A DNA stretch of 64,000 bases from NCBI GenBank assembly GCA_030425295.1, contig JAUIAT010000006.1, forward strand, positions 9,487 to 73,486. Direction: 5' to 3'. The DNA is from Gammaproteobacteria bacterium (lineage in GTDB: Bacteria; Pseudomonadota; Gammaproteobacteria; JAUIAT01). Under the pieces are notes generated by a model. That model saw nothing but the letters and a program-made list of their open reading frames with translations, searched no databases and was not told the origin of the DNA. Below are positions 63,030 to 63,145 of the stretch, piece after piece (position 1 is the first letter of the stretch; every line of letters starts with the position of its first letter). Both the position numbers and the translations under genes were made by a program.

Positions 63030-63145
63030 ATGGCGTTTCATTTCGTTAAATAGAAAGACTATTCGCCAAATTAAAGAACAAATTTTCAATGCATTCTAGA
63101 TATTTTCGCCTTGCAACACCAATTGTCAACAGCCCCTAATGCCTA
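63030..63145 (-). promoter_or_regulatory. Promoter-leader module upstream of gdh (minus strand: GGGGCTGTTGACAATTGGTGTTGCAAGGCGAAAATATCTAGAATGC...). It overlaps the 3' end of the M23 peptidase gene.
   Basis: About 110 bp homologous to the sulP leader (52190-52295). The first 40 bp are shared with the glnII and yciO copies. Confidence 0.55.

Follow-up and report, generated by a model that had tools for sequence, protein, structure and literature searches.

The glnII and gdh genes, which encode a glutamine synthetase (GS) and a glutamate dehydrogenase (GDH), are preceded in the DNA analysed here (64 kb in all, hereafter the window) by a common, promoter-like sequence which recurs upstream of the SulP permease gene sulP and of the yciO operon. 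Is this the mark of a common regulator or of a common origin of the DNA itself? The original prediction favored the former, namely a promoter with a shared 5' leader which places two central nitrogen-assimilation enzymes in one small regulon. All four copies are present at the positions given for them, and chance is ruled out as their source. The copies are related by descent, through duplication or transposition, and did not arise by convergence on a binding site. As judged from sequence comparison, the motif is probably the terminal head of a dispersed, lineage-specific, MITE-like mosaic repeat.

The identities assigned earlier to the GlnII-type GS, GDH, SulP, YciO and M23 genes are borne out by family matches. 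The glnII product fits the NCBIfam GlnII model (489 bits), the gdh product is an ELFV glutamate dehydrogenase, and the other neighbors are an M23 peptidase, a SulP permease, an AMP-binding ligase, YciO, and YciB/IspA. Protein similarities place the host among uncultured Coxiellaceae-like gammaproteobacteria; its GS shares 73% identity with the enzyme of Coxiella burnetii and 78% with the nearest database relative. Open reading frames of 926, 638, 544, 259, and 339 amino acids (13757-16537, 18061-19977, 747-2381, 33121-34927) have no Pfam match; their products may be specific to the lineage and possibly serve as effectors, of the kind typically found in Legionellales-like genomes.

With up to three mismatches, the consensus as originally written recovers the glnII copy (2712-2738, plus strand) and the gdh copy (63110-63136, minus strand), where none is expected by chance, but it does not match the copies at sulP and yciO. 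A relaxed core, GCTNTTGAMAATTNNTNTTRCA, is found at five sites of the 64-kb window, compared to 0.93 expected; the fifth of these, inverted and situated in the sulP gap (52129-52150, plus strand), had escaped the original prediction. The short sub-motif TTAGGGGC alone is not enriched. The total comes to seven copies, possibly eight, spread over five or six intergenic regions, and every copy lies within a non-coding gap or abuts the 3' end of a gene. Three of them, sulP-L, 2601-2669, and 46319-46366, had not been listed before. The copy at 2601-2669 (minus strand) was returned by a profile search (E=0.025) and aligns with sulP-L at 68% identity over 65 nt (E=8e-5), and the copy at 46319-46366 (plus strand) has 34 of 48 positions in common with the gdh head, the background of the ungapped scan being 12.4 ± 3.0 (z about 7). 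A borderline site at 20031-20078 (plus strand) surfaced in both the profile search and the ungapped scan. Two sequence subtypes can be distinguished, with gdh, sulP-R, glnII, and 46319 in subtype A, and yciO, sulP-L, and the inverted copy of the glnII gap in subtype B. The features are as follows.

62981..63141, minus strand: full-length unit upstream of gdh, 70% identical over 149 nt to the sulP unit (E=4e-17)
63141-63091, minus strand: A-type head of the gdh unit, with TTGACA at 63129-63124, the -10-like GAAAAT at 63107-63102, and TAGAAT at 63098-63093
63012-62981: distal end of the gdh unit, a decayed B-type end; the unit body is AT-rich
63126..63812, minus strand: M23 peptidase gene; the head of the element supplies its final three codons (RGC) and its stop TGA
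52121..52294, minus strand: full-length sulP unit, intergenic between the AMP-binding gene and sulP
52290-52238, minus strand: A-type head sulP-R, facing sulP-L within the sulP unit
52121-52176, plus strand: B-type head sulP-L, facing sulP-R, the two forming imperfect terminal inverted repeats
2706..2791, plus strand: A-type head region of glnII, with TTGACA at 2719-2724, an 18-bp spacer, and AATTAT at 2743-2748
2601..2669, minus strand: degenerate B-type copy with a small insertion, inverted with respect to the glnII head and aimed at the 3' end of the upstream ORF
57604..57660, minus strand: solo B-type head in the divergent yciO/yciB gap, with TTGACA at 57647-57642 and TATAAT at 57617-57612, 24 bp apart
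46319..46366, plus strand: diverged A-type head 20 nt upstream of ORF 46387-46962, its -35 box decayed to TTTATA
20031..20078, plus strand: borderline eighth copy, strongly decayed, with 29 of 48 matches to the yciO copy

The extent of the homology is best seen in the alignment of gdh 62993-63140 with sulP 52144-52287, which was obtained in a search limited to four intergenic regions and covers essentially one whole unit of ≈ 160-175 bp. The downstream similarity of these two loci, put earlier at 75-80%, is thus a true homology, but its identity is 70-71% and its length about 113-149 nt. The sequence taken earlier for their shared 5' leader forms the body of a ≈ 165-bp repeat unit, with no Rfam match and no consistent fold. 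The two full units measure 161 and 174 bp, are AT-rich, and fall within the size range of MITEs (<≈ 500 bp, non-coding). By inspection, their coding capacity is confined to a 9-codon ATG reading frame in the sulP unit that is not conserved in gdh; a leader peptide common to the units was considered and rejected, the sulP unit reading M-L-S-I-L-F-F-N-Q and the gdh unit M-H-stop. At one end of the unit stands the A-type head, TTAGGGGCTGTTGACAATTGGTGTTGCAAG..., and at the other the inverted B-type head, ..CTCTTAACAATTGGTTTTACAGCTGCAAATTTATATAAT; as inverted repeats the two heads are imperfect, about 60-65% alike. Most copies are devoid of the unit body and occur as solo heads or mosaics. The yciO copy is 91% identical to sulP-L over 43 nt (E=8e-11), and the glnII and gdh heads agree at about 80% (79.6%) over 54 alignment columns (E=1e-8). 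Overall, the homology extends for 43-149 nt at 70-91% identity.

The glnII region fits no single simple unit. Its head lies between the arms of a perfect 10-bp inverted repeat, CTTTAGGGGC (2706-2715) and GCCCCTAAAG (2768-2777), and behind it, at 2766-2791, come 26 nt similar to the gdh unit at its distal end (85%, E=0.002). This segment, CG(C/T)CCCTAAAG(C/T)TTTAACA(T/G)AAG(G/C)GA, occurs at 2766-2791 and 62981-63006, on the plus strand in both cases, and only in the upstream regions of glnII and gdh; its glnII copy holds the palindrome TAAAGCTTTA. Relative to their genes, however, the two segments are oppositely oriented, and the glnII region is therefore regarded as a mosaic. The segment may be what decay has left of the distal end of the repeat, or a site of its own that acts at the DNA level.

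Could the heads nevertheless be a dedicated promoter and operator, maintained by selection, through which a single, nitrogen-responsive factor controls GS, GDH, SulP, and the yciO operon? In favor of this speaks the appearance of the heads themselves. In a scan against the sigma-70 consensus the heads of gdh (TTGACA-16-GAAAAT, 10/12), glnII (TTGACA-18-AATTAT, 10/12), and sulP-R (TTGAAA-16-AAAAAT, 9/12) all pass, with perfect or near-perfect -35 boxes and -10-like hexamers at 16-18 bp. The spacing of these three heads also disposes of the earlier view that it is not standard for sigma-70. The perfect TTGACA then reported for the element is present at gdh, glnII, and yciO, but sulP carries TTGAAA. 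A TAGAAT or TATAAT hexamer 24-25 bp further downstream, attributed to four copies, is found in two of these (gdh and yciO) and in the newly recognized sulP-L. The promoter reading holds in the scans for glnII, gdh, and sulP but not for yciO, whose copy fails when scanned from its own TTGACA box; two better candidates lie nearer yciO, and a stronger sulP candidate, TTGATA-17-TAGAAT at 52094-52066, is about 270 nt closer to its gene, both of which speak against the heads as the dedicated promoters of these operons. Apart from this promoter-like site, the ≈ 270 nt between the repeat unit and the start of sulP (51849-52120) contain a GC-richer stretch which might be a structured leader; Rfam gave no match for 51849-52120.

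Orientation tells on both sides. All four A-type heads face the start of a gene, for which the probability is ≈ 0.125 given the gene arrangements, and roughly 0.01, as a post-hoc estimate, if it is taken into account that GS and GDH are among the targets; a regulon would predict just such an arrangement. On the other hand, two of the three B-type heads face gene 3' ends. These are the two copies in opposite orientation, sulP-L (52121-52176, plus strand) and 2601-2669 (minus strand), both aimed at the 3' ends of upstream genes, and one further copy precedes the unrelated hypothetical gene 46387-46962, which is without a family assignment. The set of targets is accordingly mixed, GS and GDH standing beside a SulP permease, YciO, and a hypothetical protein, with two copies facing no gene. 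The original prediction had granted that a motif present at hundreds of sites regardless of gene orientation would be a dispersed repeat; the two misdirected copies and the one at an unrelated gene in the window go part of the way towards this.

Three further observations weigh against a nitrogen-responsive operator. Continuous homology over 43-149 nt goes far beyond what an operator needs and is not that of a short site. The -35 box is not preferentially conserved, the A-type copies differing at 3 of 24 positions within it and at 34 of 168 in the rest of the head. Within the 64-kb window, other nitrogen-related genes, such as those for histidine ammonia-lyase and for amino-acid and peptide permeases, are without the motif. 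Outside the window, neither the regions upstream of GS in three relatives and of GDH in two nor the ≈ 86 kb around the GS and GDH orthologues of these five contain the motif; these orthologues are only 76-78% (GS) and 78-79% (GDH) identical, and at such a distance the absence is weak evidence against a regulatory site. What remains on the other side is that both GS and GDH are among the targets, and that the additional 26-nt match (85%) lies downstream of the head at exactly the glnII and gdh loci, albeit in opposite orientations relative to the two genes. Given the long homology, the unconserved -35 box, the misdirected copies, and the absence in relatives, a small nitrogen regulon is unsupported, and selection for a dedicated operator is considered an unlikely origin of the motif.

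A variant of this idea lets the repeat come first and the regulon follow by its propagation. A domesticated promoter/operator cassette, the A head, would by its spread have brought the GlnII-type GS and GDH, perhaps also SulP, under joint control in a Coxiellaceae lineage, with the 26-nt piece as part of the control region. This scenario is kept open because GS and GDH both carry A heads in addition to the 26-nt match, yet we would rate it a shade less probable than the dedicated operator.

The junctions with the upstream genes call for a different function to be weighed, that of REP/BIME- or ERIC-like elements at gene 3' ends, with hairpins which stabilize or terminate the M23 and AMP-binding mRNAs, the resemblance to promoters then being incidental. 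Both full units begin exactly at the stop codons of their upstream genes (M23 and AMP-binding). As had been noted for the gdh copy, the end of the M23 gene is overlapped, its stop TGA (63128-63126) lying inside the TTGACA box (63129-63124). M23 proteins of this family close with the conserved CPDPNLILxI and, behind it, a short tail that varies; in the present gene the CPDPNLILxI codons are native and stop just before the head, which replaces the variable native tail. The end of the AMP-binding gene, ...GKILRRVAREMG*, is typical and lies right at the edge of the sulP unit. The sulP unit, furthermore, forms a long hairpin by end-to-end pairing of its two heads (-39 kcal/mol, z=-2.6), and an influence of MITEs at gene 3' ends on mRNA stability is known (PMC10969869). 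Against such a role stand the gdh unit, which folds no better than shuffled sequence (z=+0.39) and has a decayed distal end, the lack of intrinsic-terminator features in scans of the units, and the copies at glnII, yciO, and 46319, which are not located at gene 3' ends. A function at 3' ends is less likely than an origin as a mobile repeat and, in our estimation, improbable. The gdh locus might have been the source copy if the homology ran on into the conserved M23 codons; this candidate was rejected, the similarity upstream of the TTAG at which the head starts not being significant (p=0.04 for the best of six comparisons), and the gdh locus is for this reason not claimed as the source.

Least likely of all, and hardly credible, is a family of small non-coding RNAs encoded by the unit bodies and transcribed from the heads: a promoter-like head does read into a body of ≈ 100 nt, and CbsR3, CbsR13, and CbsR16 of C. 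burnetii derive from QMITEs (PMC5896051), but Rfam yields nothing even at E<=1, a terminator is lacking, the gdh and sulP bodies have no conserved structure in common, and most copies have no body.

The element appears, on the databases searched, to be lineage-specific. An exact-pattern scan of 185,579 species genomes returned 69 matches without flanking similarity, except for one unrelated repeat family; this is a multi-copy repeat of the Planctomycetaceae MAG Po218_bin82 (JAITOZ01), ...CTGCTGCCTATTGAAAATTGGTCTTGCATAATTTTAGGCGGGATGTTAGATTATTGCAAGTCAGGGCAAGAC..., which fits the pattern and accounts for 13 of the 69 sites. The same scan of metagenome contigs gave 95 matches, all chance-like, the best-looking of which lies downstream of a DotB-like ATPase gene. 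Plasmid and phage collections showed no similarity and no related insertion-sequence end, and Rfam gave no match at the gathering score and none of relevance at E<=1 in the repeat regions. Synteny around M23 is lacking in the five relatives, and with it an empty-site comparison.

Within the host, three copies contain the ends of Logan short-read contigs whose identity with the window is 100%; these ends, at 57637, 52147, and 63012, fall in B-type head sequence, two of them at an analogous position. In assemblies from k-mer graphs, such contig ends typically mark sequence common to other places. The ends are what would be expected if near-identical copies exist elsewhere, and are taken as a hint to that effect; alternatively, they could reflect low coverage of AT-rich DNA. 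Further Logan contig ends lie in REP repeats, at 61366 and 2463, and others in coding sequence, at 13365 and 55345/55362. At 55345-55362, two contigs from different samples end within the same 18 nt inside an rluB-like gene; no repeat is detectable there within the window, and the site could be strain-variable or a coverage gap.

A dispersed MITE-like repeat, the probable reading, is preferred because the homology is long and continuous, with two subtypes and inverted pairs, because copies face no gene or unrelated genes and the -35 box is unselected, and because gene ends are overlapped and the distribution is restricted to a lineage. The family would thus be short, non-coding, and AT-rich, with an A head at one end and an inverted B head at the other, the layout of a MITE. 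Each head can be read as a predicted sigma-70-like promoter directed into the unit, consisting of TTGACA, a 16-18 bp spacer, and an A/T-rich -10 in the A head, and of a weak -35 with a perfect TATAAT in the B head. It is plausible, from the match of the heads to the consensus, that they can act as promoters for gdh and glnII, for which transcription is predicted to start at about 63092-63095 and about 2755, respectively. A head facing the start of a gene probably supplies or reinforces its promoter, as at gdh, glnII, ORF 46387, and perhaps yciO, and the remaining copies would be by-products. Co-regulation of GS and GDH, if there is any, would then be a side effect of the spread of the repeat and no sign of a dedicated nitrogen regulator.

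Several features do not sit easily with a MITE. The inverted repeats are imperfect, the fold of the gdh unit is unstable, and no transposase domain occurs among the ≈ 45 ORFs of the 64-kb window. No clear target-site duplication was found flanking the copies, which are few and decayed. The sulP unit is flanked by TA at either end, as is the glnII head with its inverted repeat; the gdh unit has TA on its left, and the yciO copy has none.

If the reading as a repeat is right, the present locus warns against taking common upstream sequences in repeat-rich genomes for regulons, and it is possibly a natural case of a repeat that donates a promoter to two central nitrogen-assimilation genes.

The window is also rich in other repeats of the REP/MITE type, which comprise GTCATCCCGCGG... 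hairpins and a CGTC-tagged family. Two dispersed families other than the present one take the form of TGTCATCCCGCGGCTTGACCGCGGGATCCAT hairpins and of CCCTCGACTGCGCTCGGGATGACG palindromes with a CGTC tag. Tandem tails of 21 nt are attached to some of them (50154-50236), and Logan contigs break inside them at 61366 and 2463. Repeats of these other families were located at the following positions.

23367-23398
35038-35160
50117-50236
61268-61418
63827-63858
2446-2483
40039-40069
40122-40159

REP-like hairpins (38865-39047) are also found in frame in the N-terminal part of a SufD-like ORF (37835-39244, minus strand). At 38909-38992 this gene contains the 21-nt tandem repeat TTGACCTTCAGGCGACAACCC four times, and the repeats are translated, N-terminal to the SufBD domains, as ...SEWIPRSSRGMREEGEDQALPPEGQRLSPEGQGLSPEGQGLSPEVQKTLSSRGLTAGSS... 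The overlap of the ORF start with the sufC stop codon suggests a genuine in-frame insertion in a housekeeping gene.

How does the family compare with known systems? Assignment to the REP/BIME class, defined by a GC-rich palindrome of 20-40 bp with a GTAG/CGTC tag, was rejected, the head forming no hairpin and carrying no tag; repeats of this type do occur elsewhere in the window. Nitrogen-control operators of the NtrC, NtcA, and TnrA/GlnR type resemble the present case in that a motif is common to the upstream regions of GS and GDH; here, however, far more sequence is homologous than in an operator, and relatives do not conserve the motif. Compared by eye with the respective consensus sequences, the head does not match sigma-54 (-24/-12), sigma-32, NtrC, NtcA, TnrA, or GacA boxes.

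Putative mobile promoters, described by Matus-Garcia, Nijveen, and van Passel (2012, PMC3488235), are highly similar stretches, 50-100 nt long, which precede non-homologous genes within one genome and are interpreted as the result of promoter propagation and transcriptional rewiring. By the threshold for this class (at least 80% identity over at least 50 nt) only the glnII-gdh pair comes into consideration, and it is borderline (79.6%, 54 columns), the other pairs falling short in identity or in length; unlike mobile promoters, some copies of the present family do not precede a gene.

A close parallel is provided by the Correia elements of Neisseria (CREE/NEMIS). Like the present units they are ≈ 100-200 bp long, non-coding, bounded by inverted repeats, and intergenic, often immediately upstream of genes. 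No sequence relationship is apparent. The present inverted repeats are much less perfect, a TA duplication is not established here, and the predicted promoters read inward from the head. According to a review (PMC10969869, on Black 1995, Snyder 2009, and Siddique 2011), the ends of Correia elements carry sigma-70-like promoters able to drive adjacent genes, and such promoters are reported there for several other MITEs as well (PMC10969869).

C. burnetii harbors two MITE families, QMITE1 and QMITE2, whose copies contribute promoter elements, and QMITE2 copies overlap the ends of neighboring genes by 1-10 bp (PMC5896051). The present family differs from both in sequence, the QMITE-like or REP-like hairpins of the window being the separate GTCATCCCGCGG... 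repeats, and the flanking direct repeats of 7-9 bp were not found at the present copies. Other features are alike: a similar size (≈ 170-190 bp), full-length copies with inverted repeats beside truncated, REP-like ones, overlap of gene ends by a few bp, promoter elements that are predicted or contributed, and hosts from one bacterial family. If the reading as a dispersed repeat is correct, the sequence upstream of glnII and gdh would represent one more uncharacterized small repeat family in intracellular or amoeba-associated bacteria known for their MITEs.
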